The notes: generated by a model from the sequence alone, not told the origin. A stretch of DNA of 64,000 nt from a virus (IMGVR_UViG_3300021964_000051:1786-65785), one strand, 5' to 3'; shown: positions 27,955 through 63,126, counted from the first letter of the stretch. Numbers and translations: made by a program.

Positions 27955-29667
27955 TCACCTAAATGTGCTAGAAGAAGTGCTTCTATTAATCTTTGAGTTA
28001 ATCATCCGTCCAATTTCATCGGCCATTCTTCTCATTTCTGCTTTTGAAGAATCTTTAGCATTAATAGTAATGTTAAAATTATTTACTGTTCCGCTTGAGT
28101 TCATTCTTCTTGAATTACTGTTAGAATGCACTCTTGAACCTCTCGGTAATGAAACTAATTCTGGGCCTTTTTCACCAACAATAGCCATACCGTTATTAGC
28201 CATACCACCTGAAGCAAATAGTCCTATTCCTTTAATTTTTTTCCAAATCCATTTAACACCAGCCATTATAATAAAAACTCCTAAAACCGTTAAAGCAGCA
28301 GGAAGGCCAAAGAAGAAAGCAACAGCCGCAACAATAACTAAGGCCAATTTACCAAAGTTTTCTTTAAATCCTTTTACTGATTGTATTGCACCATTAAATA
28401 AATTTTCTATTGTTTTCCACGCTAAAGTAAATAATGCACTTGCAGTTACCCATAATATTCCTAAAGCAACCTGAACTAAGCCCCAAGCAATAGTAAAAAT
28501 ACCATCAAGCATTTGCATTAAATCTCCATTAATAAGACCCATAAATACATCTTTGACCCCTTCCCAAACATTTGCTAGTCCAGCAAGAAGTAGCCCTAAA
28601 TTATTTTTAAATACATCAAATGCTTCTTTTAATGCTGGCCAAATTGTTTTTCTTAGGAGAACTACAACAAGAGCAATACCAGTTAAATACATCATACCAG
28701 TAATTAAGAATTGCATGACTGGTGTTTTAATTAGTTTAATAAATTGGTCTGCTATTGTTTTTCCTCTTTCTTTCATGCTCATATTATTAAATAAAATAGC
28801 ACTTCGTAGAAATTTACTTCTTAACGCTCTTGTCTTAACTTGTGCTTTTAAATGCATAAGTTCTAAAAACCCAATCGCTTTTTGCATTCTTAAAGAAATT
28901 CCTGCCCCTGCACTCCCAACCGCCTCCTTTGTCTTTGTAAAAGCGGATTTTTGGGATTGAGAAACTTTAGTATCAACTCTTTTTTGTTGCTCGGCATCAA
29001 ATCCGAAAAGGCTTCCGAAAACACCCCCTTCTTCTTGTTCTGCTTTAAATCTCTGTGCTTCTGCATCCTGTGTCTTAGAAAGCCCTATTCTTTCAAAAGC
29101 ACCCCTAATATTTATTTTTCTACCTGCTTTACCAATTGTAGTAAAAATATTATTTGCATCTTCACCTTCTCCTGCTATTTGCCTAAGTGCTGCTGAAGTG
29201 GCTCTTAGGCTGGTTGATATTTTATTTACTGCTCTAAACATTCCAGGCGGTAAAAACCCATACATGATTTTTCTAGCAGTAGCGGCTTCAAATCCAAACA
29301 CTTTAATTGTTTGACTTGAACTGCTCAAAAGTAAATCAAGATATTCCATTCCAGCAATAACTGTTCCAGTCTTGCCTTTAATTCCTACAATATCTCTAAA
29401 AGTATCAAAATTTTTCTTAGTCTGTGTGAGACTTGATGAAATTAAATTAAGTTCTTTACCTTCTTTCTTTAATCTATCAACTAATTTTGAAGAAGCCTGT
29501 CCTCTCGTTAAGGCAATCTCATTAGCCTTTTCGGAGACTTTATTTGCTTCTTTTGTAATTCTAGTTGTTCTTTGGAATTGTTTTTCTAAATTTCCTAGAA
29601 CTCTATTCATTTCAACTAAGGCCGCATTGTTCGCAATAAGCGTATCAGTATATGTCGGCCTAGCCAT
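27955..29667 (-). CDS. tail tape measure protein
   Basis: Helical, with hydrophobic segments and the C-terminal FASGG...VGEKGPELV motif; follows the chaperone genes. Confidence 0.8.
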   Translation of the reverse strand: MARPTYTDTLIANNAALVEMNRVLGNLEKQFQRTTRITKEANKVSEKANEIALTRGQASSKLVDRLKKEGKELNLISSSLTQTKKNFDTFRDIVGIKGKTGTVIAGMEYLDLLLSSSSQTIKVFGFEAATARKIMYGFLPPGMFRAVNKISTSLRATSAALRQIAGEGEDANNIFTTIGKAGRKINIRGAFERIGLSKTQDAEAQRFKAEQEEGGVFGSLFGFDAEQQKRVDTKVSQSQKSAFTKTKEAVGSAGAGISLRMQKAIGFLELMHLKAQVKTRALRSKFLRSAILFNNMSMKERGKTIADQFIKLIKTPVMQFLITGMMYLTGIALVVVLLRKTIWPALKEAFDVFKNNLGLLLAGLANVWEGVKDVFMGLINGDLMQMLDGIFTIAWGLVQVALGILWVTASALFTLAWKTIENLFNGAIQSVKGFKENFGKLALVIVAAVAFFFGLPAALTVLGVFIIMAGVKWIWKKIKGIGLFASGGMANNGMAIVGEKGPELVSLPRGSRVHSNSNSRRMNSSGTVNNFNITINAKDSSKAEMRRMADEIGRMINSKINRSTSSSTFR

Positions 29668-30300: not shown

Positions 30301-30405
30301 TTATTTAGTTAATTTAGATTTCTTTTTAACTTTCTTTTCTTTCTTCATAAGGTTGCGAGCAACCTTTTCTTTATTTTTATCGTATGCAGAAGGCAGATAA
30401 ATCAC
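30301..30405 (-). CDS. possible Lys-rich microprotein
   Basis: (VIYL)PSAYDKNKEKVARNLMKKEKKVKKKSKLTK*. The start is either GTG overlapping the tube stop or CTG at 30396 behind GGTGA. Confidence 0.35.
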   Translation of the reverse strand: MIYLPSAYDKNKEKVARNLMKKEKKVKKKSKLTK

Positions 30406-32417
30406 CCTTGTAGCATCCAATGAGTAGTAACTTCACAAAGAGAACAAGTTCTCGGCATAACTGTTGCTTCAACAACAATTGGGCCTTTATCATCAGCAAT
30501 TGGGAAATTGTTTGCGCTGAGATAATAGTTTTGGAAGTTTAGGTTAATCTTCTCTCCTGTTGATTTTGTAAAAGTTAATTCAATAGTATTGCTGGTATCT
30601 TCCACTTGATTTAACAATTCATTGTATAATCTATCATCAGTCACATGACCAGTAAATGAAATCTCATAGGTTCTTTGTGCGGGAATAGCCTCCTGAATAG
30701 ATTTGCTACCAACACCAAAAAATCTTCGGTCTTGAAGAGAATTGTTCATGGTTAGAGTCAAAGTGTTAATTTTTAAGAAAGAATGACCGAAGCATTTGAA
30801 AACACCATCTGAGAAAAAGAAAGGTTCACGCAGTTCATCAACGGAAGTAAAGTTAAAGAAAGAAGTTTCGTCAGTCACGCCTCTTCTAGCATCATAAGAT
30901 TCAGTCTTTTCTAAAGAATGAACAGCCCTTGTGTTTGCGCTAAGAGTCATTTTAACTTCTTCATTTTCATTAGCAGTTAAAGTGAGAGTATTAACTCGGC
31001 ATCCTCTAGCGATTTTAACAAAGTTAAGTTCTTCGTTATCGTTAGCAGTTTGAGTTCGGTATGTGTCCGAAGAAGGCAATTTGCTCATCACTTGTTCTAA
31101 AGCAAACGAAGGAAGAAGGTCTTGTTCTTGTTCGGCAAAAGTATATTTAATAGCATTCTGCAATTTACCGCTAGTTAATGAGAAAGCCCCTACTTTATCA
31201 AGATTTGCCCTATCATCAATTGAAATATTAACAGGAGGTGTCATTACATTTACACTATTTTCACGAACAGACCTTTGAAAAATTGGGCCTGTTTCTGAAA
31301 TTGAATTGTAGTCAATATATACTGCATTTGCGCTTTCAGCAGTAAAATCATTCGTTGGAGGAATCCCGCTTGGCGCACTTTCACTAAAAACATCACTTGT
31401 GCTAATATTTCCTATATCAACATTAGTGCATCGCCCTAAGAAATAATACAACCAAGCACCGTGATTCGCAACAAGACTCAAATCAGCCGCACCTGCGGTT
31501 TCAATACCCTTATATTGGTAAGTCCAATTTCTTGAACCTCCAAGAGATAAATTGGTTTGTTTCATTTCAACCTCAGTAGTAGGGAAAGTAATAGATTCTG
31601 TAATGCCTAACCAAGTATCAGCAAGAAGTCTTTTTCCAGTAGTAGTGGTTGCCGTTGTTCCTACTACTGAAGTAATAGTCAAATTAGAATTAATAGACTT
31701 AGCGGTTCCATCTAATTGACTCATTGTAGTTGCTACTGCGTTAGAACCACCATGAACACTAGTAATTGTGACTGTTGCGCCATTTCTTGTAGCAGTAGCA
31801 TTAGTTAAGCCATCTGCGGCAGTAGCCAAAATCGCAGCAAATTCTTCTCTTGTGTTGTTTGATACTCCATCAATAGCCACTTCCGCAGATGTTGAAATAC
31901 CTCCACTATATGTTTGACCACCAGATGAATCAATAAATAGGGCTGCTTGAGCCAAAGTCCCTCCACCTGATGTTTCAGCAGAAAGGAGATTCAAAACAAT
32001 TACATCATCATCATAATCAGTTTTATCATCACTAAGGAAAGTAATAGTCGTAATTAAATCGGTGTGGGTTGTTCCAGAAGAAACTTTTGGTGCAGGACAT
32101 GGCGCACCATAGGATTCAATAACGAAATAATCATCTGAAGCCAAAGTATCAACAGAAGGGCTGATAGTGATAGTAGTTTCTGTATTAGAAGTAATTCTGT
32201 GAATAGTTTGTAAATTATCACCAGTATTATATCTGCGAATAACACAACCAACATAAATATCATTCACAAGAGAAAAATTATCCGTGAAGTTAGCGTGTAA
32301 AGTAAAGGTTGATACATTACTTCCTGCACTTGCAGTTGTAATTTTACAGTATAAGTCCAATTCAGGGACTTTTGTGATACTTGCTCCGCTACCTAAAAAT
32401 ATATCGCTATTTACCAT
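30402..32417 (-). CDS. major tail tube protein with inserted domains
   Basis: SFALEQ, GCRVNTLTL, LTLTMNNSL and RTYEISFT tube-like strands; position before the chaperones. Confidence 0.75.
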   Translation of the reverse strand: MVNSDIFLGSGASITKVPELDLYCKITTASAGSNVSTFTLHANFTDNFSLVNDIYVGCVIRRYNTGDNLQTIHRITSNTETTITISPSVDTLASDDYFVIESYGAPCPAPKVSSGTTHTDLITTITFLSDDKTDYDDDVIVLNLLSAETSGGGTLAQAALFIDSSGGQTYSGGISTSAEVAIDGVSNNTREEFAAILATAADGLTNATATRNGATVTITSVHGGSNAVATTMSQLDGTAKSINSNLTITSVVGTTATTTTGKRLLADTWLGITESITFPTTEVEMKQTNLSLGGSRNWTYQYKGIETAGAADLSLVANHGAWLYYFLGRCTNVDIGNISTSDVFSESAPSGIPPTNDFTAESANAVYIDYNSISETGPIFQRSVRENSVNVMTPPVNISIDDRANLDKVGAFSLTSGKLQNAIKYTFAEQEQDLLPSFALEQVMSKLPSSDTYRTQTANDNEELNFVKIARGCRVNTLTLTANENEEVKMTLSANTRAVHSLEKTESYDARRGVTDETSFFNFTSVDELREPFFFSDGVFKCFGHSFLKINTLTLTMNNSLQDRRFFGVGSKSIQEAIPAQRTYEISFTGHVTDDRLYNELLNQVEDTSNTIELTFTKSTGEKINLNFQNYYLSANNFPIADDKGPIVVEATVMPRTCSLCEVTTHWMLQG

Positions 32418-36216: not shown

Positions 36217-36867
36217 TCACATGAGCCACTTAGCCCAAGCCGCCCCTTTTTGAATAGCCGAACCCAAATGTAATCCGCTTGAAGGTGGCTCATAACTCAT
36301 TTGACCTTGAGCATCAATCCAATATGGGCGACCATATCCGTCTGTTCCCGAAGGAGGAATAGGATAACCTGAACCATTATTCATAGCACCTTGCATTTGA
36401 TTGTATTGCTGAGTATTTCCAGTAGCATTGGCTAAAGCCATACCTGCTGATGGTTGTTGCATACCTCCACCATTAAAGCCTTGCGATTCAAGATATTGTT
36501 GTTTAGCCATTTTTCTTTGCATAACAACTTCACTATTGATAGCAGACTGTAATAATTTTTGAATATCTAAGTCAATATTTTCTTGAGTAATTCTCTCGTA
36601 TTCACGAAGAGCATCCCTGTTGATAGTCATGCTTGTTCCGTTAGTCTCAAAACTTAACTTAGCCAACATTTGAGAAACTACTCTTTCTACTACATCTTCC
36701 ATCATTTTTTCAAAAGCAGTTAAAAACATTTCACCATGATATTGGAAAAATTCTTCAACATGATTTTCTTGTAATGAAAGAAGATTATTAACTGTTTTAA
36801 AGTTATTATCATTTTGTGCCTGAACTGCACCTAAAACTGTGTTATTGCTGGTTCCTAGTAGTCCCAT
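36217..36867 (-). CDS. helical protein with a Gly/Gln/Pro-rich linker and an amphipathic C-terminus
   Basis: 216 aa; starts MGLLG and ends GSAIQKGAAWAKWLM; part of the GTPase cluster. Confidence 0.7.
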   Translation of the reverse strand: MGLLGTSNNTVLGAVQAQNDNNFKTVNNLLSLQENHVEEFFQYHGEMFLTAFEKMMEDVVERVVSQMLAKLSFETNGTSMTINRDALREYERITQENIDLDIQKLLQSAINSEVVMQRKMAKQQYLESQGFNGGGMQQPSAGMALANATGNTQQYNQMQGAMNNGSGYPIPPSGTDGYGRPYWIDAQGQMSYEPPSSGLHLGSAIQKGAAWAKWLM

Positions 36868-36869
36868 AT

Positions 36870-37529
36870 TTATTCCTCCTTACTTTTTTCTTCTTCGTTT
36901 TGGGCCTGAACATTGTTCTTAAGCATCAAATGATTTAATCTTTCGGTCATAAGGCTGATTTCAGTAATCAAACGAATTACTTCTTCGGTGGCCGTCTTTG
37001 TATCTGCTAGTGCGGGTGGGGTTATAAACCATCCTGCCGCAGTAAGGGTCATAACATCTTCTTTAGTTAAAGTCTTAATTGGGCCACTTTTAAGCACTTT
37101 AGGCATTCGTGGCTTAAAAGCACTAAACTCAAGACCGTGTTTATCAGCCAGTATTTGTTGTTGAAGCATTTCCATTTGCATATAGATTGAAGCGTGTTTA
37201 GGACAATAAGTTCCCATTAATGGCCTTCCTTTAGTAACTCCATCTAAAGGCATAGGAGGACGCATATAATCTCCTTGTTCCCAAATGTGATGAAAACCAC
37301 AGACAACGCAACGGTCTTTAAGATTAAACTTTTTTCCATATTTGATGCCTAAAAACTTCTTAGGTTCTGCCTTTAAAACCAATTTAAGTTCCTTTAATTG
37401 TGCCTTTGGTTTAAATGAAATAAACTTGTATTCTTGCACAACACCGCTTGCTCTCGCCTGTTGTAGCGGAGATAGCGCAGGGTTAAATTGTGCTGGTGCG
37501 TTTTGTCCTATAATTTGTTGTTGATACAT
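36870..37529 (-). CDS. putative zinc-binding and coiled-coil protein
   Basis: CVVCGFHH...YCPKH; C-terminal heptads; adjacent to the GTPase. Confidence 0.7.
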   Translation of the reverse strand: MYQQQIIGQNAPAQFNPALSPLQQARASGVVQEYKFISFKPKAQLKELKLVLKAEPKKFLGIKYGKKFNLKDRCVVCGFHHIWEQGDYMRPPMPLDGVTKGRPLMGTYCPKHASIYMQMEMLQQQILADKHGLEFSAFKPRMPKVLKSGPIKTLTKEDVMTLTAAGWFITPPALADTKTATEEVIRLITEISLMTERLNHLMLKNNVQAQNEEEKSKEE

Positions 37530-37555
37530 CTTTTATTCCTCTCTTCCACACAATA

Positions 37556-38224
37556 TCAATAATCCTTTATCATTGTAGTAATTCCTCTATAAACCATTTC
37601 AGGGTCAGACTTTGCGGAAACAATATACTTGAAACAAGGTATTCCTTTATCATTTAACTTTCTCATTCCGTATTTAAATGGTTCAAAAATTTGGTGTTTA
37701 TCAATAGATTGTCCTTCTTCTAATGGATATTTTTTTGCCCATATATCATATTTATTTGCCCAAATACCTACCGCCATTGGATAATCCGAGTCTCTTTTCT
37801 TTTTTCCGTTTGACCATGTGCTTGAAATAATTGAATCTACTAAAAATTTCCATGCTAATTGGTGGTCTAAGTTTGCTTCACTATCTAAATGCCTGTGGTC
37901 AATCATAAAAATAACATATTTAACTCGTCTATTTTGCATATCTTTTTCCCATTCTTTCCAGTAAATTGCTTCTCCACCAATATCTGCGCTTCTTACTGTA
38001 TGTGAGTCTCCATCAATTTTGACATTCTTTCTCGTTGCTCTATGTCTCCCAACGGTTCTTTGTTGTATTTGTGGAACTTCTCCTCTCGTTCTTAATTGAT
38101 GACTAAGTGTTGTTTTACCGACCATTGTTGCCCCATAAACTCCAAAGTTAATAGCGTGAACCTTTTTGTAAAAACCTAATAGTGCTTCTCCCACTAAAAT
38201 AGCAAAGCCTGTCATTAGGGACAT
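37556..38224 (-). CDS. Arf-like small GTPase
   Basis: G1 GATMVGKT, G2 RTVG, G3 DIGG, VIFMID, G4 ANKYD, G5 SAK, and an N-terminal hydrophobic/amphipathic helix. Confidence 0.88.
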   Translation of the reverse strand: MSLMTGFAILVGEALLGFYKKVHAINFGVYGATMVGKTTLSHQLRTRGEVPQIQQRTVGRHRATRKNVKIDGDSHTVRSADIGGEAIYWKEWEKDMQNRRVKYVIFMIDHRHLDSEANLDHQLAWKFLVDSIISSTWSNGKKKRDSDYPMAVGIWANKYDIWAKKYPLEEGQSIDKHQIFEPFKYGMRKLNDKGIPCFKYIVSAKSDPEMVYRGITTMIKDY

Positions 38225-38225
38225 T

Positions 38226-38519
38226 TTATTCACCTATAAATACATCTAATCCAATAAATTCTCCTTCTATTTTCTTTTCGTAGTTCCAAAAAAGTTCTCC
38301 GTTAAATTCATCTTCATCGGCATATCTCATTTTCCAACCTAAATTGTTCAGTTTTCTATTTAATTCATCCCAATTCACATCTAATGGAAACAGTAAATCA
38401 ATATCTTTTGGATTATCCTTTTTTCCGACAGAACCAACAATTTTTGGTTTAAATTCCTTTAAATCATCAAGCAAAGAATTAGCAATAGAAACATAGTTTT
38501 TGAGTATGCTAAACCACAT
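38226..38519 (-). CDS. minimal (Pol beta-like) nucleotidyltransferase with a WxxILK leader
   Basis: IVGSV...KDIDLL...LDVF; starts MWFSILK. Confidence 0.75.
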   Translation of the reverse strand: MWFSILKNYVSIANSLLDDLKEFKPKIVGSVGKKDNPKDIDLLFPLDVNWDELNRKLNNLGWKMRYADEDEFNGELFWNYEKKIEGEFIGLDVFIGE

Positions 38520-39184
38520 ATCAATGCCCCCACCTAAAAATATTTATTTAACATCATTTCTAAATGTTTTATAGCATCTTCCATCTCATATTCTGTAATT
38601 CCTGCACTTCTTCTAAGATTTTCTTCATCTTTACTCGTTAAAGAATTATTTTTCATTCTTTGTAATAATTGTTTTCCTAATTCTGCTACTTTTGAATCTG
38701 GTAAATATTTATATTTGGGGGTATCAGGCATTCTTCTATCTATTTTGGAAGGGAATTCTTTCCCTCTTGGGGTAATGTTTCTTCTAGTGTCAATAAACAT
38801 CCAATAAATCTTATCTTCCGTATCTTTATAATTAGCGTAGCCTTCATCCATTCGCATTGAAAAATCTTGGTCTGTTTTAAGAGCCTGTTTAATTGTGGGT
38901 TTTGCTTCATTTTTATATGAGGATTTTTGTTCAGGAACGACCTGTGAACCGAAGAAAGCATAACATAAGGCTTCATCTAATCTAGGAGTCCAATGTAAAG
39001 TGCTATCTTCATACCTTCTATTTTCTGGTAAATTTGAAGTTTTTCCTTGTGCGCCTTGAAATAATTTATTAAATTTAAATCTCATGTCATACGGTTCGCT
39101 GTCAGTTTCTCCGGGATTTACAATTTCTCCATGTATAACATATGGCTTTTTTAAAATATCCCACCACATATTAATGCCCCCACC
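38513..39184. repeat. 22-nt direct repeat pair at 38513-38534 and 39163-39184 (1 mismatch)
   Basis: accacatat(c/t)aatgcccccacc at both ends of the 38534..39169 gene. Confidence 0.85.
38534..39169 (-). CDS. WxxILK-leader protein, possible ADP-ribosyltransferase-like fold (paralog of 63123..63608)
   Basis: MWWDILK; LFQG...HWTP..DEA..YA..GS...KPTIKQA. Confidence 0.6.
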   Translation of the reverse strand: MWWDILKKPYVIHGEIVNPGETDSEPYDMRFKFNKLFQGAQGKTSNLPENRRYEDSTLHWTPRLDEALCYAFFGSQVVPEQKSSYKNEAKPTIKQALKTDQDFSMRMDEGYANYKDTEDKIYWMFIDTRRNITPRGKEFPSKIDRRMPDTPKYKYLPDSKVAELGKQLLQRMKNNSLTSKDEENLRRSAGITEYEMEDAIKHLEMMLNKYF

Positions 39185-39389
39185 CGTTTAACAAAGTGTC
39201 AAACAAGAAACCCATGATGTTGATGTCAAAAACACCAAGGATGTTTCCAATAAGGAAACCCGAAAGACAAGCGCAACTGCCCCAAAACCATGCTCGCATT
39301 TTCAAAAAGAAAATATCAGCAGAATGCGCTCTTTGTTGATTATAAGCATAATCCGAATCGGAAAAGCCCATCAAATCTCCAAAGACCAC
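39171..39389 (-). CDS. small membrane protein
   Basis: 72 aa with the hydrophobic C-terminal half AWFWGSCACLSGFLIGNILGVF. Confidence 0.75.
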   Translation of the reverse strand: MVFGDLMGFSDSDYAYNQQRAHSADIFFLKMRAWFWGSCACLSGFLIGNILGVFDINIMGFLFDTLLNGWGH

Positions 39390-39401
39390 TCAACCACCGC
39401 C

Positions 39402-39785
39402 TTATTGAAGGGCGGCTAAGAACTCATTTCCAACGCTATTTTCTTCTTCCTGTTGAATAGGTTGATAAAAAGTAGTATTGTATTGCTTTGCGCTTTCACG
39501 CATCTTTTGTCTTTGTTGTTCGTCCCTAGCCTTTCTTTCCCAGTATGCCGCAATTTTACGGTCTAAGAGCCAAAGTTCAATTTTGTCGTTAAGGGATAGG
39601 TCAAAAATAGCCTTCATAACCATAATCGCACCAATCGTCCCTAAGCCAAATAGAACTGAATGCGCTAATGGGCCATATGGGAAACTCATGCCGAAAGCGG
39701 CATATGCCCAAACATTTGTTCCGCTTAATGCACCAACAAATAAAATGGTCATAATTAGACGAGTATCTTGACTTAATGCAACCAT
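39402..39785 (-). CDS. two-transmembrane-helix protein with a charged cytoplasmic tail
   Basis: LIMTILFVGALSGTNVWAYAAF and SVLFGLGTIGAIMVMKAIF, followed by a coiled/charged tail. Confidence 0.8.
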   Translation of the reverse strand: MVALSQDTRLIMTILFVGALSGTNVWAYAAFGMSFPYGPLAHSVLFGLGTIGAIMVMKAIFDLSLNDKIELWLLDRKIAAYWERKARDEQQRQKMRESAKQYNTTFYQPIQQEEENSVGNEFLAALQ

Positions 39786-40827: not shown

Positions 40828-42180
40828 TCAAAGGAGATTGGTAATCTTTCCTTGGCCCTTGAAGTAAGAACAACCAGTTTCAGCCATTGTGCGGTAAAGA
40901 GCCTTGTTTCCAAGAGAACCGACACCGAATGGGTTTCCGTTGCTGATACCATCTTCAAAGTATTGTGTAGGCTTCATCACAGATAGCCACAAATGGTCAG
41001 TATCAAGGAAAAGCATATCACTAATCAAAGAACTGTTTGTTCCAGTAGAAGGCATAGCCGCAACAGGAATCAAAGGAATGTCGTAGTAAGTAGAAACACG
41101 GAAACCGACTTCTGCACCCTTAACACCACGAACACCGTTCACAGTAGGAACGATTTCCTTTCTATCCATGAAACGCTCTTGAGCCTGAAGCAAGTCAGAA
41201 AGCGTTTGAAGAGTATCATATCCCGTAAGAATGACCTTTGGCGAACCACCAGCAACACGGAGTCTGCGAACCATGTCGTTAATCACAGTAAGCGTCAATT
41301 GTCGTGCTTCTGCGGAAAGGTAGCCATCACCGAAAGAAATCTCGGAGTCTAAATACTCATTACCAGCCGCACTTCGGAGTTTTCCGTAAAGAGTGTCAAT
41401 TTGTTGGTCAGTAGCCGTTCCAACAAGGTTTCCTCCAGCATTGTCAGCCAATTCATCAATTTCAGCAGAACTGCTCACAATCTTGTAAAGAGAAGTGTAT
41501 GCTCTATCAATGGCGTTTGCCGTAGCATATGCCGTAGTCGGAGAATAGTTCTCCAAAGGCATAACAAGCATTTGATTCTGCACTTCAGCGTGATGCTTAC
41601 CCATATCCTCTCTCAATTGCGCTCTAATATCACCGATACCATCGTCAATTTGAGCCATTTCCATAGCCAATTCGCTGAAAGCAAATTGATGAGCGATGAT
41701 TTTTGGACTGGTAAAGAGCGTATCATACTCAGGAGCAATTGAAATCAAACCATCCGTATTTGAATCAAGGCTGGCGTTTTCGGGAACACCACCAATTCGG
41801 TCAGCACGAAGGGCATCAGCACCATAAAGTGAATCAGCGAGAGCCGTGTTAGAAGCGGCAGAAATGTCCAAAAAGTTTCCAGCACCACCAGCAGGTCGCT
41901 TTCTGAGGATTCTCCAACCACTTGACGAATAAGGACGCTTTGCGATAACAGACAATGCGTTGCATTCTCGGTTTAGCATAGACCAGACCTTTTGGCCGTA
42001 AATCTTGTTGTAAAGGTTTGCATTAATACCCGTTGGGTCGCTTAACGAACCATCGTGAGCGACATGAATACCGCTAACGGTTCCTGCCGCTTTAAGCAAT
42101 TGGTTGCTAATATGACCAGTTGCGCCCGTTCCGTAAGTTTGTGCTTCTAAATCTGCAATAGTGTTAATATATCCTACCAT
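40828..42180 (-). CDS. major capsid protein (HK97 fold)
   Basis: 450 aa directly downstream of the protease/scaffold gene; composition and GC-richer codon usage fit a highly expressed gene. Confidence 0.85.
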   Translation of the reverse strand: MVGYINTIADLEAQTYGTGATGHISNQLLKAAGTVSGIHVAHDGSLSDPTGINANLYNKIYGQKVWSMLNRECNALSVIAKRPYSSSGWRILRKRPAGGAGNFLDISAASNTALADSLYGADALRADRIGGVPENASLDSNTDGLISIAPEYDTLFTSPKIIAHQFAFSELAMEMAQIDDGIGDIRAQLREDMGKHHAEVQNQMLVMPLENYSPTTAYATANAIDRAYTSLYKIVSSSAEIDELADNAGGNLVGTATDQQIDTLYGKLRSAAGNEYLDSEISFGDGYLSAEARQLTLTVINDMVRRLRVAGGSPKVILTGYDTLQTLSDLLQAQERFMDRKEIVPTVNGVRGVKGAEVGFRVSTYYDIPLIPVAAMPSTGTNSSLISDMLFLDTDHLWLSVMKPTQYFEDGISNGNPFGVGSLGNKALYRTMAETGCSYFKGQGKITNLL

Positions 42181-42191
42181 CTTAAATCACC

Positions 42192-43361
42192 TCAAAGGTT
42201 TCCTCCAACCATTTTATGAATGTCAGCCCAATCCATTTCGGCTAATTCTTCCATAGTAGGGAGTTTGATTTGGGCTTCTTCTTGAGCCTTAATGATGCTA
42301 TCTCTTTCAGTCGTCAAAGACTTTCGGAGAGCAGTAAATTCCTGCTTAAGAGAAGCAATTTCGCTTTGTGCATCATATTGCGACTTAGCGAGAATGTGTT
42401 CTCTTGAAGAGGTTTCAGCATTGAAACGAGCCTCAAATTGCTTTTGGAGGTTATCGTAAGCCAATTTCTCCAATTGTTCTTGACGGAAAGCCTCGTAAGC
42501 CTTCTCAATGTTTCCAACGGACAAATCAAGAGTTTCTAATTCTTGGTTGTCAAATGCCTTAACAACGGGCAAATCCGATGCTCTTGGCTTTCCGTTGTCA
42601 ATAACGACTCTATCGGCAGGTTCACCGATTTCAACGCCAGCACCGTCAAGGGTAGAAACATAAGCCTTTGCTTCGGAATCACCGTAGCCCATGCTTTCTT
42701 CATCTTCTTCCATCGGCATACCCTTTTCATCTGCGGGCATATCCATACTTTCCTCTTCTTCTTCTTTACGGAGCATATTCACTTCTTCCATCAAAGCGTC
42801 TAGTTCCGCTAATGCTTTTTCAATTTTGGTCATATTTTTCACCTTTTTATCTTGCTTTAAAATGTCAAATTTTGCTTCTGGATTAATTCCTTTTTCACAA
42901 ATAGTGACTTCGTGTAATTCTAACTTTGAAATTTCATTGTATTGTCCAAATTCATCATTGGTTTTCTTTACTTTTTCTAAAGCCTGTCCTCCAATACTGA
43001 AACTTCTTAATGAACCTTTTCTAATGCCTCGGTTAATTTCTTTGGCTTTTTCAATATCATCTCTTAACTTAATAACAACAAAGAATCCAACATCATCAAC
43101 TTCAGTTTTCCATATTCGTCCTGTTTTATCTCGGTATGATTCAACAACTTCCCCAACTTGAACATTTGAATGATTAGTCATTACATTTCTAAACTTGGGG
43201 TTCTCCATATATTTTTTAACAGCATCATTGAGTGCTTTAAGTGTAATTAAGTCATTTTGCTTATCAACGATTTCAATGCTTGCATATCCACCAATCATTA
43301 ATTCGTCGCTTTTTAGAATCCTGAAATCTTGAGTTGTGTTTCTCATCACAGCAGAAGTCAT
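42192..43361 (-). CDS. prohead protease fused to a scaffolding domain
   Basis: IGGYAS..VDKQND, H in MTNHS, SFSIGG and EVTIC..GINPEA; acidic coiled-coil C-terminal half. Confidence 0.9.
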   Translation of the reverse strand: MTSAVMRNTTQDFRILKSDELMIGGYASIEIVDKQNDLITLKALNDAVKKYMENPKFRNVMTNHSNVQVGEVVESYRDKTGRIWKTEVDDVGFFVVIKLRDDIEKAKEINRGIRKGSLRSFSIGGQALEKVKKTNDEFGQYNEISKLELHEVTICEKGINPEAKFDILKQDKKVKNMTKIEKALAELDALMEEVNMLRKEEEEESMDMPADEKGMPMEEDEESMGYGDSEAKAYVSTLDGAGVEIGEPADRVVIDNGKPRASDLPVVKAFDNQELETLDLSVGNIEKAYEAFRQEQLEKLAYDNLQKQFEARFNAETSSREHILAKSQYDAQSEIASLKQEFTALRKSLTTERDSIIKAQEEAQIKLPTMEELAEMDWADIHKMVGGNL

Positions 43362-43405: not shown

Positions 43406-46387
43406 CTAATCCTCAACAGGAAGGGGCAATTTGTTATACCTATCCTCATAAATATTCCACTTTCCTTCATCCCCGTCTTTATCAGCAGGTTTTTGTTTGA
43501 ATCCTGTCCATGCTAACCACATAGACTGTCCATCAACTTCAATGACTCTATAATGCATTTTAGTTTCAAATTTATTGCCTTCTAAGAAATATTCATGGTA
43601 GCCGTCCCTTTGAATACCTAGACGAATTTTACCAGAATCTATAAGTTTTCCCTTAGAAACAGTCTTTGCTACTTCTGCTGGATATTTACCAGCCGCACCG
43701 AATAAGTCAAACATCTCTTCTTCATTTTCAATGTTAATTGTCCAGAACATATTTTCTGTTTTAAGTTTAATTGCTAGAGTTAAATTATCATCTTCTCTAG
43801 CATAAATTTTAAATTCTCCTTCTCTTAATTCAGGAGGTGTTTTATATTCTCCTTCTACTGCTTTAATATCCTCTTTTAGCATAGCATATTTATCACTAAA
43901 ACCAGAGTCTCCGTGAACGCATTTTTGATATTCTTCTAAGGCTCGTTTTAGTTCACCTATATCTACCCCATCTACGGTAGTATCAAAAAATTCTTCAACT
44001 ACTTCCACTAATATTTCACATTTTAAAGTATCTACTGCATTATTCATGGCTTGCACTTCTGCCTCATAATTGTTTTCCCAATTATCCTCTTCAAATTCTT
44101 CTGGTCTTGACAAAACATCTTCATATAGTTTTTCATAACTGCCATAATATCTAATATGAGCGTCTAGGGTTTGTTTTCTGTTTTGTTTAATGGCTTCCTT
44201 TAAATTGCGACAACATTCATCATCTTCGTTTGTATCAATTTGAACTGCATCATCTTCTTCTGCTTCTTCAATGATTTCTTTAGTGCGAACCAATTCAGCC
44301 ATTTTAGTTAAACTTTTTTTAATTTCCTCTTCCTGCATAATTTTATCATCATCAGCAGCAATTTTATTATCTTTTTCACTAATACCGTCTCTAAGGACAG
44401 CCCATTGTTTTAATTTCTTTTCACTAGAATCAAGAACTTCTTCATATAAGTCCTTATGTTTTTCTTTCAAAAAATTATGTAATTGTCTCGGAGTCTGTTC
44501 TCCATTTAATTTTAGGTGCTGAAACATAGCAACAGTTAATTCACTTTGTTTAGTTTTCATAATGTCCAATGCCTGTTGCTTCCACATATCTAAATCCATA
44601 GTAGCGTTCTTAGACATTAAATTATTTTCTTCATATCCATAAATAGTAAATCCATCTAAATCATATTTTATGATTACATTTGCTTCTCCGTGAATATGGT
44701 CTGTAATTTTAATACCTTTCTTAAATGCTTCAACATTATAGTTTAAAGATTTTTTGGTGTCTTGAGACAATAATTCCAAAGTGACTAATTTATCGGGATG
44801 TTCAACTTCAGGAACTTCAATTACTTTAGCAGAAAATAAACTATACCCTTCTCCTTTCTTTTTAACTTCATCCACTTTAACTCGGATAATATCTCCAATA
44901 TCAACAGAAATTTTAGTATTTAAAGCCCTACCTACATTTAAGTATTGTCTTTTATTAACATCAACTGTTCCTTCCATTTCTTCTGTGATTGGCCCAACAC
45001 CAACACTATAAGAATAAAGATTACTCTTGGTCTTTTTCTTGTCAAGAACAATAACATCTAAATCAACAAACTTTTTCCATTTAATCCACTTAGGATTTTT
45101 CTTTGTTCCGATATAATAAGTTGAAGTAGAGTCTTTAATAACTACTCCCTCAGAAGCAGGGTTTTCCATAATTTCTTTTGAATACTTTTCAATATCCTTT
45201 AAGTTATCTGCTTGTCTTGTATCTTTCTTTGATGGGAAAGCAATCACTTCATTTGTTTTTGAAGAATAATTGTTGAATAATATAGTCATTCTATTTTCTA
45301 ATTCCTCATCAGCGAGAGTTTGAGATTCATGTCGTATAATATCAAAGACATGACAACGCAGTTTTGCATCTTTGTATTTTCCTTTGAAAACATGAGCGAT
45401 AGTATCTGCTCTATGCAAGGGTTCACCTTCATCATCAAATAGAACTAATTCACCATCTAAAATACAATCACCATATTCTTTCTTTTTAAGTTCCTCAACT
45501 TGTTCTTTACATTTCTTAGTAATGTCTTTTTCATTATAAGAATATATTGTAACTTTGTCATCAATTTTATGTAATTGAACTCTCATACCATCATATTTTT
45601 CTTGAACATACCAATTTCCACTAAAGCCTTTTAATTCATTAATGTCATCTATTTCAAATATTCTATACATGGGTTTATTGGGAACAATAAATTGTGAAAT
45701 TGATTTTTTCTCATCACTTGGAACAGACTTAGAAAGACCTTCAATATCAATTAATTCTTCCCATTCTTTTTGTTCTTTCTTAGAAAAGAAAATTAGTTCT
45801 AACATATCCATAGCAGCCTTTACTTTAGATTCAACTTTCTTTGAGTCTTTTCCATCCCCGTAATGCTCAATAATATAGAGGGCTACATCGTCTGATTCTA
45901 GGTCAAGTCCGATAAGACCCTCCGTAATTGTGTCGGGGGTCATGCCTTTAACCTCATAAATGTCATCAGATAGTGCTTTATTGTTGTCTCTTATTGCATA
46001 ATGCACAAACTTAACCATAGATTCGGGATTATCTAACAATTCTTCAAGAACACCATCCTTGAACATGGAGGCGAAGGGGTCGTCCACAATGGACGAAGAA
46101 TAACGAAGAAGTTTAATATTTTCAAACAGTTCTTTAGCCTGTCTTGAAGTAGGGTCTTTAGTGTCCTTATCTTCTAAATTTTTTTCATCAATAAAGTTCC
46201 GCATTTCTTTTCCTGCGGCATCTGTTTCATTATATGATTCAATGATAGTATCAACTGCTTTACGCCAACGACCACTATACTCATTAGGGTCTTGCTTTGC
46301 AGATAAATAGGCTACTCTTGTCTTTTCAAATAGACGAAGAATTTCTTGAGAAGGTTGTTTATCCTTCTCAATAGAAGCCAACTTCAT
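43406..46387 (-). CDS. large multidomain protein with an ATP-dependent DNA ligase domain
   Basis: EKYDGMR, LDGELV, VFDII, EGVVIK, WIKWKK and an OB-like region, with long extra N- and C-terminal regions. Confidence 0.85.
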   Translation of the reverse strand: MKLASIEKDKQPSQEILRLFEKTRVAYLSAKQDPNEYSGRWRKAVDTIIESYNETDAAGKEMRNFIDEKNLEDKDTKDPTSRQAKELFENIKLLRYSSSIVDDPFASMFKDGVLEELLDNPESMVKFVHYAIRDNNKALSDDIYEVKGMTPDTITEGLIGLDLESDDVALYIIEHYGDGKDSKKVESKVKAAMDMLELIFFSKKEQKEWEELIDIEGLSKSVPSDEKKSISQFIVPNKPMYRIFEIDDINELKGFSGNWYVQEKYDGMRVQLHKIDDKVTIYSYNEKDITKKCKEQVEELKKKEYGDCILDGELVLFDDEGEPLHRADTIAHVFKGKYKDAKLRCHVFDIIRHESQTLADEELENRMTILFNNYSSKTNEVIAFPSKKDTRQADNLKDIEKYSKEIMENPASEGVVIKDSTSTYYIGTKKNPKWIKWKKFVDLDVIVLDKKKTKSNLYSYSVGVGPITEEMEGTVDVNKRQYLNVGRALNTKISVDIGDIIRVKVDEVKKKGEGYSLFSAKVIEVPEVEHPDKLVTLELLSQDTKKSLNYNVEAFKKGIKITDHIHGEANVIIKYDLDGFTIYGYEENNLMSKNATMDLDMWKQQALDIMKTKQSELTVAMFQHLKLNGEQTPRQLHNFLKEKHKDLYEEVLDSSEKKLKQWAVLRDGISEKDNKIAADDDKIMQEEEIKKSLTKMAELVRTKEIIEEAEEDDAVQIDTNEDDECCRNLKEAIKQNRKQTLDAHIRYYGSYEKLYEDVLSRPEEFEEDNWENNYEAEVQAMNNAVDTLKCEILVEVVEEFFDTTVDGVDIGELKRALEEYQKCVHGDSGFSDKYAMLKEDIKAVEGEYKTPPELREGEFKIYAREDDNLTLAIKLKTENMFWTINIENEEEMFDLFGAAGKYPAEVAKTVSKGKLIDSGKIRLGIQRDGYHEYFLEGNKFETKMHYRVIEVDGQSMWLAWTGFKQKPADKDGDEGKWNIYEDRYNKLPLPVED

Positions 46388-46392
46388 ACTAA

Positions 46393-46929
46393 TCATCTAT
46401 TTTTTTGGTATTCGGAGTCTAAAGTTTCTCCTGAATATTCCGAATCATAAGCAATCGTTTGTTCAGGAATTTGAGATAATTCGCTTTCAAGTTCCATTAA
46501 TTTCTTATTAACTTCAACAATTCTATTCATCATCTCATTCTGTTCATCGGGTTTAGCATCCTTGATTTGTTTAGATAACCCAGTAAGCATAGCAGATAAA
46601 CCATCAATTTGTCCAATCAATCTCATTCTTTGTTCATGGTCTAACATAGGATTAGTTTCATAATCTTCAGGTAAAATGTTCTTTAGAATCTTAACCATTT
46701 TAGTTACTTCACCAGCATAAGCATGAAGAGTAGTCGGGCCATCATTTGATTCTGCCTTGTAGTTGTAATTTTCAGCCTTTGGTCGCTTCAATTTAACTGC
46801 TTCTGAATCATCATCTTCTGGACTACGGTTGTTGTCCATTAAGGATTGATAAAGCATTTCTTTTGCTTCTCTTGCTTTTTGAATCATAATACTGATTTTT
46901 CTTTCTTCTCTAGTAACTCTTTGAGGCAT
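46393..46929 (-). CDS. hypothetical head-region protein
   Basis: ORF with a GAGTGA RBS; coiled-coil C-terminus. Confidence 0.65.
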   Translation of the reverse strand: MPQRVTREERKISIMIQKAREAKEMLYQSLMDNNRSPEDDDSEAVKLKRPKAENYNYKAESNDGPTTLHAYAGEVTKMVKILKNILPEDYETNPMLDHEQRMRLIGQIDGLSAMLTGLSKQIKDAKPDEQNEMMNRIVEVNKKLMELESELSQIPEQTIAYDSEYSGETLDSEYQKNR

Positions 46930-47184: not shown

Positions 47185-47439
47185 TCACATTCCAAATTTA
47201 GCCTTGCACCTGTCTCTTTCTTCCATATATTCTTTTTCAGACATTCCGCCCATTCCAAATTTCTTATTCAAACGGTCTATACAGGCAAGATAACTTTGAG
47301 AATCTAAAGTGCTTCCCCTCATGGGCTTTCTTCTACTTCCGCCTCTAAATCCTGCTGAACTCAGTCCTCTTCCTTTTGATACTTCATTACAGTCATCACA
47401 ACCGCAACCATGTGCCTTTAATATATTTTTCCAACTCAT
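47185..47439 (-). CDS. WxxILK-leader Cys/Gly/Arg-rich small protein
   Basis: MSWKNILKAHGCGCDDC... Confidence 0.7.
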   Translation of the reverse strand: MSWKNILKAHGCGCDDCNEVSKGRGLSSAGFRGGSRRKPMRGSTLDSQSYLACIDRLNKKFGMGGMSEKEYMEERDRCKAKFGM

Positions 47440-49465: not shown

Positions 49466-49690
49466 TCAAAAGGGAATGTTTTCTTTCTTTCCTCTTTTCC
49501 TAGAAGGAAGGAGAATAACATCAGGATTATCAGCAGAAGAAGGTAAAGATTTATGAGAGGAATCTGGAGGAAGTCCAACAGACATATCTTTATTCTTTTG
49601 AACCTTATTATTTTCTTGAGCCGTCATAGCCTTAACTTTGGCTAACTCTTGAGTCAATCTTCTTTGCTTTTGGTGTAAATCTTCGCTCAT
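49466..49690 (-). CDS. hypothetical protein
   Basis: 74 aa with a GGAGG RBS. Confidence 0.65.
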   Translation of the reverse strand: MSEDLHQKQRRLTQELAKVKAMTAQENNKVQKNKDMSVGLPPDSSHKSLPSSADNPDVILLPSRKRGKKENIPF

Positions 49691-50016
49691 AGTTTTTCCT
49701 CCAATGTTCCCTGTGTTCTTTCTAAAATAGCAATGATTTGTTCTTTGGAAAGGCTTTTAATATAATTAGTAGCCCTATCAATTAAATCTTCTCTTGTCAT
49801 TTCAGCAAGATTAGACATATCTTCTTCAAAAACCATATCTAAACTATCCACTCTTCCTCTTGGATTTAGGTCAGCAATAGGATTTCCTCCCTTCATTCTT
49901 GTTTGAGTGGGTCTTTTGACCTTATTACTCAAAACCTTTTCAGGGATTTCTTTACCCCCTCCAAGTTTGCCTTTTCTATCTCTTACTGCTTTTAAAATAT
50001 TTTCCCAATTATTCAT
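49687..50016 (-). CDS. WxxILK-leader protein
   Basis: Starts MNNWENILKA immediately after the portal stop. Confidence 0.7.
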   Translation of the reverse strand: MNNWENILKAVRDRKGKLGGGKEIPEKVLSNKVKRPTQTRMKGGNPIADLNPRGRVDSLDMVFEEDMSNLAEMTREDLIDRATNYIKSLSKEQIIAILERTQGTLEEKL

Positions 50017-50017
50017 C

Positions 50018-51658
50018 TTAATCAACTCTCCTTTCGGTTCTGTTGTCATTGTTTTGATTACCTGCATCTAATGGTAATCCCGAAAGTCTCTTATCGGGTG
50101 CTACGCTCATCCTGCTTTTATTCCTTGTGGCGGGTGGGTTCTCTTGAGGTTTCCCTCCGCCTTCCATAGCCTGTTCTTGCATCTGCCCTAGTTGTGAAGC
50201 ATCAATATTTGTTCCTGCATAGGGGTCAGGAGCCGCTTGTTCTCCTTCACCTTCTGCTGGCGGTTTTTCTTCGGGTTCAGGTTTCTTAAAAGTAAAGTTA
50301 CCATCTTCATCCATATCAACATCAAATCCTAAATTTTTAGTTGATGCTGCGATATTAACTTCTATTTCACGCTTACGAAGAACAGCAATTTCATCTTCTT
50401 CTTCGCTCGGTGGTAATTTCAAATCCCAATCTGTAATTCCAAATTGTTTAACAAGGAACGGAAATACATAATTATTATACACAGTTTGTGCTTTTTGAAC
50501 TGCACGATTTGTTACGAGGATTTGCATACCTTCATTGTTTAATCCACCGCTTGTAGTGTTATCAGCCATGAATACTTTACTTACACCATAGAACGCTGAA
50601 ATTCTATCTCGCAAATCATCTTTAACAGAAACATAATCCATTTCCTTAAGACTATCCATGAACTTAATCCATTCAACTGCTCCCTTACCACTTTCTGCTT
50701 CAATTCCCATAACTGGGATAAAATGAGGGTCAGCCTCCATTTTTTCTTTTACTGAACGCCAAAAAGAACGCATTGAGTCCATATTTCTAGTTTGAACTGC
50801 AAGTAATCCTCTCGGCATTCTGCTCTTAGTATAAGATTGATTAACATAGTTTTCCATAGCAATAAGAGTCATAATATTATTAAATAAAGTAATAACAGGA
50901 GACATACCATAAAGACGAGAAGGACTATATTTACTAAAATGTAATACTTCTCCCTTTAAAAAGTGCTGGTCTTCCCCATTTACTCTATTAACATAATGAA
51001 TAGGAAATAAATTACTATCACAGACTTCACATCTTTCGTGAGGGTCAGGATGAATGACTCCACGATGATTTACACAAGTGAAACCTTTAGTTCCTCTTTG
51101 TCCATTTTCATCACTATAAATAAACATAGTAACTGGGTCGCCACGATAAATTTCTTTAATTCTATGCATTCTAATTTTACCATTACCATCAATAAAATAT
51201 TCTTTAACCAAAACAATGTAAGCATCGTCCATGATATTTAAATCATCTTCAAGTTCTTGAAGAACATCAATAAATAGTTGTTCAGATTTATTAACATATC
51301 CTTCAATGAATCTTTCAGCATATTCTAATTGTTTAACATCAGGAATTTTTAAATCAGGACTTTTACAACGAGAACATTCTTGAACAGGTCTTTTATGTTC
51401 TTTTCCACAAGAATTACATAGTGCTTCATAAGACTTTTCCCAAACATATCCTCTTCTAAAAACTTCTTGTTTTAGTTGAGTAATACAAGTTCTAGCAATA
51501 ACAGATTGATTAACAATATTATAGATAATTGGGCCAGTCATCATGTGATTGGTTTCCCTTTCTTGGATGCCCATATTGAAAACTTTTCTATCAGCAGGTT
51601 TAGGAGTTTGCCTCCTAAAGAGGTTACTAAAACTAAATCTTCTGCTATCTTCAGCCAT
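50018..51658 (-). CDS. portal protein with two zinc-ribbon insertions
   Basis: EVLHF..YGMSP, MPRGLL and ISAFYGVS portal motifs; CNSC..CSRC and CVNH..CEVC inserts. Confidence 0.9.
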   Translation of the reverse strand: MAEDSRRFSFSNLFRRQTPKPADRKVFNMGIQERETNHMMTGPIIYNIVNQSVIARTCITQLKQEVFRRGYVWEKSYEALCNSCGKEHKRPVQECSRCKSPDLKIPDVKQLEYAERFIEGYVNKSEQLFIDVLQELEDDLNIMDDAYIVLVKEYFIDGNGKIRMHRIKEIYRGDPVTMFIYSDENGQRGTKGFTCVNHRGVIHPDPHERCEVCDSNLFPIHYVNRVNGEDQHFLKGEVLHFSKYSPSRLYGMSPVITLFNNIMTLIAMENYVNQSYTKSRMPRGLLAVQTRNMDSMRSFWRSVKEKMEADPHFIPVMGIEAESGKGAVEWIKFMDSLKEMDYVSVKDDLRDRISAFYGVSKVFMADNTTSGGLNNEGMQILVTNRAVQKAQTVYNNYVFPFLVKQFGITDWDLKLPPSEEEDEIAVLRKREIEVNIAASTKNLGFDVDMDEDGNFTFKKPEPEEKPPAEGEGEQAAPDPYAGTNIDASQLGQMQEQAMEGGGKPQENPPATRNKSRMSVAPDKRLSGLPLDAGNQNNDNRTERRVD

Positions 51659-51956: not shown

Positions 51957-52244
51957 TCACCACAATTTTTTACAGGCTAAACATTTAGGAGTAGTAATTC
52001 TTCCTTTACATTGGTCACAGTTATGTCGTGCTTTGAAATTAGCACGACGCTTTTTGTTAGTATGTGTTCCGCCACCACGATTCTTTCCTTTTCCTTTGTA
52101 ATTACCATAACCCTTCGCACCAGCATGAATTTTCTTTCCTTCGTGAGTAAGCATCATAATTTTCTTACCTTCCCTATCAGAAGCATAAACACGACCAACT
52201 CTCATATCTTTTTTGTCTTTCTTTAAAATTTCTTCCCATACCAT
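51957..52244 (-). CDS. basic small protein with a WxxILK leader
   Basis: MVWEEILKK; GKK...IHAGAKGY...RRANFKARHNC pattern, recalled from widespread marine-virus basic proteins. Confidence 0.7.
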   Translation of the reverse strand: MVWEEILKKDKKDMRVGRVYASDREGKKIMMLTHEGKKIHAGAKGYGNYKGKGKNRGGGTHTNKKRRANFKARHNCDQCKGRITTPKCLACKKLW

Positions 52245-62688: not shown

Positions 62689-63126
62689 TTATCTTTTCCA
62701 TGAAGGAATGTTCTTTTCATCAGTAGTCCAGCCTTCTCCGCCTGTTCTTTCCCATGATTGGGGATTAGAAAAATATTCTTGAATTAATTCCCATAATGCT
62801 TTTCTTTGGGGCAAGTTATCTTCTTGTTGCATAATTTCCATAAGAACGCCCGAAATAGTATTAGAAACACCATATCTACCTCTATTGAATTTATTTTTAC
62901 CTGAAACTTTTTTAAAGGCCGTTATAAATTTATCAACACCAACATAAGTTTTATCCTTTAATTCATATTGAATACCGCTTCCCATTTGGTCTTTAGTCAT
63001 AAAATCTTTCATTTCTTTTGGGTTTTCCATATCTTCCCAAGCATTAGATTCTTCTAAATAACTAGGGCCAGCAACGCCCTTTCTATCATGTTCAAATCTT
63101 GATTTGATTATATCTTTCCAACTCAT
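62689..63126 (-). CDS. WxxIIK-leader hypothetical protein
   Basis: Starts MSWKDIIKS. Confidence 0.75.
   Translation of the reverse strand: MSWKDIIKSRFEHDRKGVAGPSYLEESNAWEDMENPKEMKDFMTKDQMGSGIQYELKDKTYVGVDKFITAFKKVSGKNKFNRGRYGVSNTISGVLMEIMQQEDNLPQRKALWELIQEYFSNPQSWERTGGEGWTTDEKNIPSWKR

Follow-up and report, generated by a model that had tools for sequence, protein, structure and literature searches.

The DNA analysed here, referred to as the window, is a 64,000-nt stretch of an IMG/VR virus record (IMGVR_UViG_3300021964_000051:1786-65785); it holds 64,000 of the 65,785 bases of that record, for which CheckV gives a completeness of 71%. Judged by its gene content, the window comes from a magrovirus, one of a widespread group of tailed ocean viruses whose hosts are uncultured Poseidoniales (Marine Group II) archaea, and among the matches of a protein search a homologue of the GTPase described below carries the name Poseidoniales virus YSH_150918. 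Placed amid the major capsid gene (40828-42180) and the tail genes, we found seven open reading frames (ORFs) on the minus strand (36217-39785), all in the same orientation and spaced 1-26 nt apart. This cluster includes a gene for a divergent Arf/Sar-like small GTPase, with two small membrane proteins encoded upstream, a Cys/His protein and a Gln/Asn-rich helical protein encoded downstream, and two variable cassettes inserted just before the GTPase. An initial annotation of the same sequence had described a virus-encoded Arf-like GTPase in a cluster with membrane and coiled-coil proteins. Following up that description, we found a GTPase family with affinity to the Arf branch at the centre of what is, in the loci compared below, a real and conserved late-gene module of magroviruses.

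The GTPase gene (37556..38224, minus strand) encodes 222 amino acids (aa) from an ATG start. The ATG at 38224 is likely the start codon, because alignments with most of the 80 close homologues begin at residue 4 of the 225-aa form that an alternative GTG at 38233 (37556-38233) would give, and because GGTGA lies 8 nt upstream. All five G motifs had been annotated in Arf-like form, and G1, G3, G4, and G5 were indeed intact, comprising the P-loop GATMVGKTT (residues 31-39; 38108..38134), DIGGE, where Glu stands in for the catalytic Gln (residues 81-85; 37970..37984), ANKYD (residues 156-160; 37745..37759), and SAK (S203-K205), with the IFMID strand at I105-D109. The G2 Thr was ambiguous, being either T57, in RTVG, as in the initial annotation, or T64, which HMMER aligned to the switch-I Thr of Sar1b. 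We built a broad alignment and profile of 22 family sequences (A1), with identity down to 24% and including three very distant homologues, and a narrower profile from viral family members only (A6). G31, G36, K37, T39, D81, G84, D109, N157, K158, and D160 were invariant in A1, W92, S203, and A204 were conserved at 90% or more in A1, and W92 was invariant in A6. Both GxxxxGK[ST]T and ANKxD were present in 165/165 family ORFs checked. With these motifs, and with matches of the A1 profile to the solved small GTPases KRas (8e-9) and Arl3 (2.4e-8), the protein is a genuine small GTPase of the Ras superfamily.

For comparison of loci, the window clade was represented by 80 close loci, with GTPases 82-98% identical and neighbours located by tblastn. 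Three other clades, named after their members P0133 (80 loci), P0137 (4 loci), and P0132 (11 loci, 6 of them examined), have GTPases 28-38% identical to that of the window, and their neighbours were found by iterated profile searches within the loci. The Glu that had been noted after DxGG in place of Gln recurred in all 80 close loci of the window clade. The same position held Q in 54, E in 14, D in 6, and another or an unmatched residue in 6 of the 80 P0133 loci, and H in 4/4 P0137 loci.

The first 21 residues of the GTPase (38162..38224, minus strand) form a predicted hydrophobic helix followed by Lys-Lys. This segment had been described as a hydrophobic or amphipathic helix; its hydrophobicity was borne out (Kyte-Doolittle value (KD) of 1.71 and Eisenberg mean hydrophobicity <H> of 0.67 for residues 1-18), and its amphipathicity was weak (hydrophobic moment muH of 0.19), so that the helix is hydrophobic rather than clearly amphipathic. 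The equivalent N-terminal segment in the other clades is likewise hydrophobic and then basic. A second basic element is the loop before G4, which carries 6.2-6.6 Lys plus Arg (K+R) per 16 residues in three clades, compared with a background of 2.67 and a 95th percentile of 6.

Several independent but modest lines of evidence connect this GTPase to the Arf branch. Searched alone against Pfam, the window protein gave sub-threshold matches to MMR_HSR1 (6e-4), Ras (0.03), and Roc (0.04). In a phmmer search of the PDB, Sar1b came first (E 0.13), with Rab33B and Arl8/Arl10 also among the matches; the Sar1b alignment begins in the N-terminal helix (LGFYKK versus LGLYKK), keeps equal spacing to the P-loop, and takes in the switch-II Trp. 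The virus-only profile A6 gave 12 PDB matches at E<=0.01, in which the best small GTPase was 8oun_A (E 8e-5), followed by five Arl8/Arl10 entries (7e-4 to 5.6e-3) and three Rab33B entries (5.6e-3 to 9e-3); three RecA concatemers among the 12 represent a P-loop artefact. The A6 match to 8OUN was collinear across the N-terminal helix and G1, the switch-II Trp with the next strand, and G4. According to the preprint that describes it, 8OUN is the full-length, GDP-bound form of GerdArfR1, an Asgard Arf-family protein whose membrane binding in yeast requires its N-terminal amphipathic helix (bioRxiv 10.1101/2024.02.28.582541).

Alignment of A6 by hhalign against seven Arf-like references (nematode ARFRP1 together with Asgard and other metagenomic proteins) gave 97.15% probability and E 4.8e-11 over 160 columns, running from G1 to G5. 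A switch II Trp followed by an I-F-x-x-D strand is a signature of the Arf family; W92 aligned with the Trp of Sar1b, GerdArfR1, and the Arf-like references, and IFMID aligned with IFVMD/IFVVD. The catalytic Gln that follows DxGG in the Arf family is Glu in the window GTPase. The distant homologues P0171, P0176, and P0163 scored best on the full-length Pfam Arf model (57, 36.5, and 27 bits; cut-off 22.3), P0163 had Arl6, Arl3, and Arl5 as its best PDB matches, and the named ESM Atlas clusters nearest to the GTPase bear Arf domains. In a tree whose only references were Arf-like, and which bears on the unity of the viral family and not on its placement, the viral GTPases formed one split with support of 99/95. 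The modest lines from the searches and alignments together point to a Ras-superfamily GTPase with Arf-branch affinity, short of a proven member of the Arf family, and the annotated Arf-like character is thus upheld, the closest resemblance found with A6, hhalign, and phmmer being to the Arf/Arl/Sar/ArfR branch.

The family itself is isolated and, as far as the searched collections go, nearly virus-only. Scanned exhaustively with HMMER, 1.84 billion cluster representatives yielded 61 matches at E<=0.001, of which 35 reached E<=1e-10 and 9 reached E<=1e-30. A word-indexed search returned 349 proteins; the 120 listed were 71-92% identical and mostly carried no names, and five of these 120 have the automatic JGI label "GTPase SAR1 family protein". 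With one genome per species across 185,579 prokaryote species, a single GTPase match was obtained (87% identical), on a 12.2-kb contig filed under a Maricaulis metagenome-assembled genome (MAG) (locus L166, NZMJ01000024.1). This is probably a mis-binned magrovirus contig, because the same Zn-type and helical neighbours lie beside its GTPase gene. No match was found by tblastn with the GTPase in INPHARED/GenBank phage records. The distant homologues P0163, P0171, P0150, and P0178 were absent from the viral contigs searched, P0178 also from the metagenome contigs searched, and P0132 was found in metagenome contigs and not in viral contigs. As a separate observation, P0163, P0171, P0176, and P0206-P0212 make up a second rare Arf-like family, intermediate between the viral family and ordinary Arf-like GTPases and known only from short metagenome contigs of 1.2-20.8 kb.

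Directly downstream of the GTPase gene, its invariant partner (36870..37529, minus strand) encodes a Cys/His, Zn-type protein of 219 aa with a C-terminal helical tail. Its putative metal site, C74-x2-C77 ... C109-P-x-H112 with G101-R102 in between, is encoded at 37194..37310 (minus strand). C74 and C109 were invariant in 20/20 sequences and H112 was conserved in at least 90%, and the motif GRxxx[GA]TYCPxH occurred in 154 of 160 members. The first half-site reads CxxC in 76/76 members of the window clade, the MAG contig included, and Cx4C in 65 of 84 others. Metagenome relatives numbered 952 at E<=0.001, and the 120 listed had no Pfam domain and only generic or positional source labels. None of 20 aligned members matched any consistent Pfam family, and the top ESM Atlas score of 0.83 came without a family. 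We speculate that the conserved Arg102 is a candidate arginine finger.

The third member of the conserved trio (36217..36867, minus strand) encodes a helical protein of 216 aa that is rich in Gln and Asn (39 Q+N). Its profiles from different clades matched one another by hhalign at 100% probability, and its family matches were weak and at chance level (Phasin_2, E 0.003; PHROG "virion structural protein", E 0.014). Upstream of the GTPase gene lie the genes for a membrane protein of 127 aa with two transmembrane (TM) segments (39402..39785, minus strand) and for TM72, of 72 aa, which has one C-terminal hydrophobic segment (39171..39389, minus strand). The two hydrophobic segments of the 127-aa protein have 19-mer KD values of 1.49 and 1.89 and precede a charged tail of 66 residues with 10 K+R and 12 Asp plus Glu (D+E). 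This protein matched nothing in Pfam, only families of unknown function in PHROGs (E about 0.01), and no holin family; it may be called holin-like by architecture alone. PADLOC gave no family match to the cluster proteins and one chance-level hit. Contigs from RNA libraries (four metatranscriptome runs) of a 90-97% identical relative, which as such are no proof of transcription, covered the genes for the helical protein and for both membrane proteins in addition to part of the Zn-protein gene, and only 33 nt of the GTPase gene.

Conservation of these neighbours across the clades identified the core of the module. The Zn-type protein was encoded near the GTPase in 76/80 window-clade loci, 80/80 P0133 loci, 4/4 P0137 loci, and 6/6 P0132 loci, and the helical protein in 72/80, 80/80 (seeded from locus L085), 4/4, and 5/6, respectively. 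The order GTPase, Zn-type protein, helical protein was kept in all four divergent clades, and median gaps in three locus sets were 11, 5, and -3 nt between the first two genes and 3, 10, and -3 nt between the second and third. Membrane proteins were encoded upstream in every locus with sufficient flank (77/77, 72/72, and 4/4). In the window clade these are the 127-aa and 72-aa proteins, each in 78/80 close loci. In the other clades they are a 2-TM family, "TM178" (78/80 P0133, 4/4 P0137, and 5/6 P0132 loci), and a small 1-TM family, "TM81" (79/80 loci of the P0133 set and 5/6 of the P0132 set), and a further 2-TM protein follows the helical protein (80/80 and 6/6). TM178 and TM81 are positional counterparts of the window's membrane proteins, not demonstrated homologues. 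Co-conservation of the five genes, which had been suggested as a check on the initial annotation, thus held for the two partners directly downstream in four clades and for small membrane proteins as a class upstream.

The position of the module relative to other late genes varied. A capsid gene lies close to the cluster in 74/80 window-clade loci versus 0/84 when the P0133 and P0137 sets are taken together. Of 12 distant loci examined, 6, all of the P0133 clade, have a terminase-like homologue about 7-8 kb downstream in the same orientation and no capsid gene within 8 kb. The earlier placement of the cluster between capsid and neck genes is therefore right for the window clade only. Going by these positions, the module moves as a unit yet stays in the late region. 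PHROG annotation of neighbours in the distant loci gave nothing informative.

Comparison with known systems shows both likenesses and differences. With Arf/Arl/Sar1 and Asgard ArfR, the viral protein has in common a small G domain (G1, G3, G4, and G5), an N-terminus in which a hydrophobic helix and then basic residues precede strand 1 in matching register, and the switch II Trp followed by the I-F-x-x-D strand. It differs from them in falling below the Pfam Arf threshold, in having about 30-40 extra loop residues before and after G4, in a catalytic Gln that is often replaced by Glu, His, or Asp, in a less amphipathic helix, and in being carried by tailed archaeal viruses. The initial annotation had called Arf relatives typical of eukaryotes and Asgard archaea, which omits a more relevant comparator in Euryarchaeota, ArvA. 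As reported for Haloferax volcanii, ArvA is an Arf-like GTPase with an N-terminal amphipathic helix that is required for extracellular vesicle formation and acts in outward membrane budding; the arvA-arvB-arvC operon encodes one partner proposed as a guanine nucleotide exchange factor and a Zn-ribbon partner proposed as a GTPase-activating protein (GAP), and ArvA is annotated as MMR_HSR1 yet closest to Arf (PMC10927574). The viral GTPase shows the same pattern of an MMR_HSR1 match in Pfam, here sub-threshold, combined with closest resemblance to Arf. Like ArvA/ArvB/ArvC (OapABC), the viral cluster combines an Arf-like GTPase bearing an N-terminal helix with an adjoining Zn-type protein and a second small partner; unlike it, the cluster includes membrane proteins, and the viral partners match neither OapB (PF09846) nor OapC (PF09845), the latter also in 0/20 Zn-family members. 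The resemblance to this vesicle system is by analogy only.

Phage holin lysis cassettes offer another comparison. Small membrane proteins, a charged C-terminal tail, a late-region position, and co-orientation with structural genes are common to both, whereas the viral cluster has no holin family match and no endolysin of the two families searched. These two, Amidase_2 and Phage_lysozyme, gave 0 matches in the 65.8-kb record, in keeping with the earlier remark that no endolysin was seen. To our knowledge, a GTPase, a Zn-type protein, and a Gln-rich protein are not components of known lysis cassettes.

We propose that the cluster is a GTP-switched module for egress or membrane-linked assembly that works on the host membrane in the late phase of infection. 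This is the best-supported reading, though a tentative one, and we assign it a probability of roughly 0.4. Late in infection, the membrane proteins would enter the host cytoplasmic membrane, and the GTP-bound GTPase would dock on it by means of its N-terminal helix and also, in three of four clades, by a polybasic loop. The Cys/His protein with its conserved Gly-Arg might tune GTP hydrolysis in a GAP-like manner; the residue at the catalytic position varies (E, Q, H, or D), which hints that a partner protein is needed for hydrolysis. The Gln-rich protein would be a recruited effector or scaffold, and the module would finally deform or open the membrane so that virions could leave a host without peptidoglycan. 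Magroviruses might even possess a minimal machine of their own for GTP-switched membrane remodelling, comparable to Sar1/COPII or ArvABC, and this viral equivalent would constitute the egress system of tailed archaeal viruses in hosts without peptidoglycan, although we consider this unlikely. In it, the Arf-like GTPase would be regulated by the Zn-type protein in a GAP-like way and joined by the Gln-rich protein as coat or scaffold and by two or three small membrane proteins; release could proceed by membrane opening or by vesicle budding.

A number of observations weigh against a GTP-switched membrane module. All loci were collected through the GTPase, and co-occurrence of the partners was thus seen in one direction only. 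Matches by hhalign between the window's membrane proteins and those of the other clades were weak (11-15% for the 127-aa protein and TM178, 3-22% for the 72-aa protein and TM81), Met1 is the only invariant column of the helical protein, and of the 84 Zn-family members outside the window clade, 19 lack the paired Cys that make up the first half of the metal site. Models of OapB/ArvB and OapC/ArvC found no match in the virus record, and both matched the Haloferax volcanii controls. The hydrophobic moment of the N-terminal helix is low across clades (0.19-0.27), and this helix may be a fixed anchor instead of a switchable amphipathic helix; the loop before G4 is weakly basic in the window clade, with 4.2 K+R and 2.3 D+E. 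In every case the module sits in the late region among morphogenetic genes, a position that a role in assembly would explain equally well. As to the Arf affinity, the broad profile A1 scored Ras as well as Arl3 at about 1e-8 (KRas 8e-9, Arl3 2.4e-8), and the Pfam Arf model (PF00025) had no match to the GTPase at E<=0.1 nor to the six-frame translated record at E<=10. In six-frame searches the same model matched 14/14 control genomes, including bacteria lacking Arf, and 13 of them above the cut-off. Since it matches every control genome, Pfam Arf matches alone are weak evidence, and more generally Arf labels on prokaryotic or viral proteins call for a second line of evidence.

The main rival to membrane action is a role in morphogenesis, in which the GTPase and its partners would chaperone assembly or act as a checkpoint when heads are completed, heads and tails are joined, or tails are assembled. 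The membrane proteins would then form an assembly site on the membrane, or be proteins of the virion or of ejection. We regard this role as possible, if doubtful. The cluster lies inside the structural region in the window clade, with capsid on one side and tail genes on the other, and upstream of a co-oriented terminase-like gene in the P0133 clade; the helical protein has its weak PHROG match to a virion structural protein, and low-complexity proteins rich in Gln, Gly, and Met are scaffold-like. Set against this, the cluster has no fixed place with respect to the capsid and terminase genes, PHROGs hold no family for the GTPase, the Zn-type protein, or the membrane proteins, and three small membrane proteins would be unexpected in cytoplasmic assembly of heads and tails. 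We also know of no GTPase from tailed-virus assembly pathways.

Two further explanations concern the GTPase itself. It might mimic or compete with a host Arf-like GTPase such as ArvA, changing vesicle production, blocking superinfection, or altering the cell surface without driving release, which we think improbable. Besides the Arf-like nature of the viral family, this idea draws on the reported control of euryarchaeal vesicle formation by ArvA-type GTPases (PMC10927574) and on speculation in a review that viruses exploit them (PMC10791045). However, the viral GTPase has conserved partners of its own, which are not ArvB or ArvC, it has no PADLOC family match, and no close cellular homologue was found, the one match in the 185,579 species genomes being on the viral-looking 12-kb contig. 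Alternatively, the protein could be a pseudo-GTPase that binds nucleotide, has lost hydrolysis through the Gln-to-Glu change, and acts as a static adaptor only. The uniform Glu of the window clade and the variation among Q, E, D, and H at this position elsewhere fit such a scaffold, yet G1, G3, G4, and G5 are strictly conserved at about 30% identity, which argues that nucleotide binding matters, and a partner with a conserved Arg always adjoins the GTPase. Sar1, too, has His at the position of the catalytic Gln. A static scaffold is an explanation that we consider very improbable.

The egress machinery of archaeal tailed viruses is described in a review as completely uncharacterized (PMC10791045). 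The module, conserved and virus-specific and equipped with membrane proteins, offers a concrete candidate for this step that can be expressed and tested. The family would also add a viral lineage to the short list of membrane-linked prokaryotic Arf-like GTPases, namely Asgard ArfR and euryarchaeal ArvA, with relevance to the origin of GTPase-driven membrane remodelling before eukaryotes. The word GTPase is absent from the main texts of three magrovirus papers and a survey of archaeal tailed viruses, whose supplementary gene tables may list the gene, and full-text literature searches on small or Arf-like GTPases of archaeal or Poseidoniales viruses returned nothing about a magrovirus GTPase gene.

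Elsewhere in the window, late genes include a tape-measure-like gene (27955-29667), a minor tail gene (30402-32417), the major capsid gene named above (PHROG major head protein, E 3e-18), a prohead protease gene (42192-43361), a portal gene (50018-51658), and a terminase-like gene (54429-55859) whose Terminase_6C match (E 3.5e-4) is slightly below the cut-off. Directly upstream of the prohead protease gene, within the structural region, a 996-aa ORF (43406-46396, minus strand) carries an ATP-dependent DNA ligase domain (PF01068, E 9e-32). A 2351-aa ORF upstream of the module in locus L085 showed no similarity to the window's 1981-aa tail-like ORF. Magroviruses are reported to be the third most abundant group of marine viruses and to encode thermosome-type chaperonins (PMC5434244). 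In the P0137 clade, inspection of N-terminal sequence by eye points to a chaperonin-like gene (511-553 aa; L162 5250-6785, L165 4820-6481) located some 1-1.5 kb before the module on its upstream side.

The two cassettes beside the GTPase gene lie outside the conserved module, and their description as inserts was confirmed by their rarity. The longer (38534..39169, minus strand; 211 aa, N-terminus MWWDILK) was present in 2/80 close loci and had no family match below E 0.01 in Pfam, PHROGs, or PADLOC. The shorter (38226..38519, minus strand; 97 aa, N-terminus MWFSILK) was present in 0/80 and had a weak match to Pfam DUF6932 (E 0.05); its GS...DxD stretch suggests a small nucleotidyltransferase. 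Loci of the P0132 clade carry a conserved gene (about 256 aa; for example, L167 9229-9999) between the small membrane protein and the GTPase, at the same point as the window's cassettes (38224-39171). The junction between these two genes thus takes extra genes in two clades, and the two cassettes of the window are unrelated to each other. Seven minus-strand ORFs of the window (38226-38519, 38534-39169, 47185-47439, 49687-50016, 51957-52241, 62689-63126, and 63123-63608), both cassettes among them, share the N-terminal motif M-(0-2 residues)-W-x-x-[IL]-[LI]-K. This start may be a common tag or a recombination module on accessory genes, and similar "KSWxxLK" starts occur in ORFs of locus L156.

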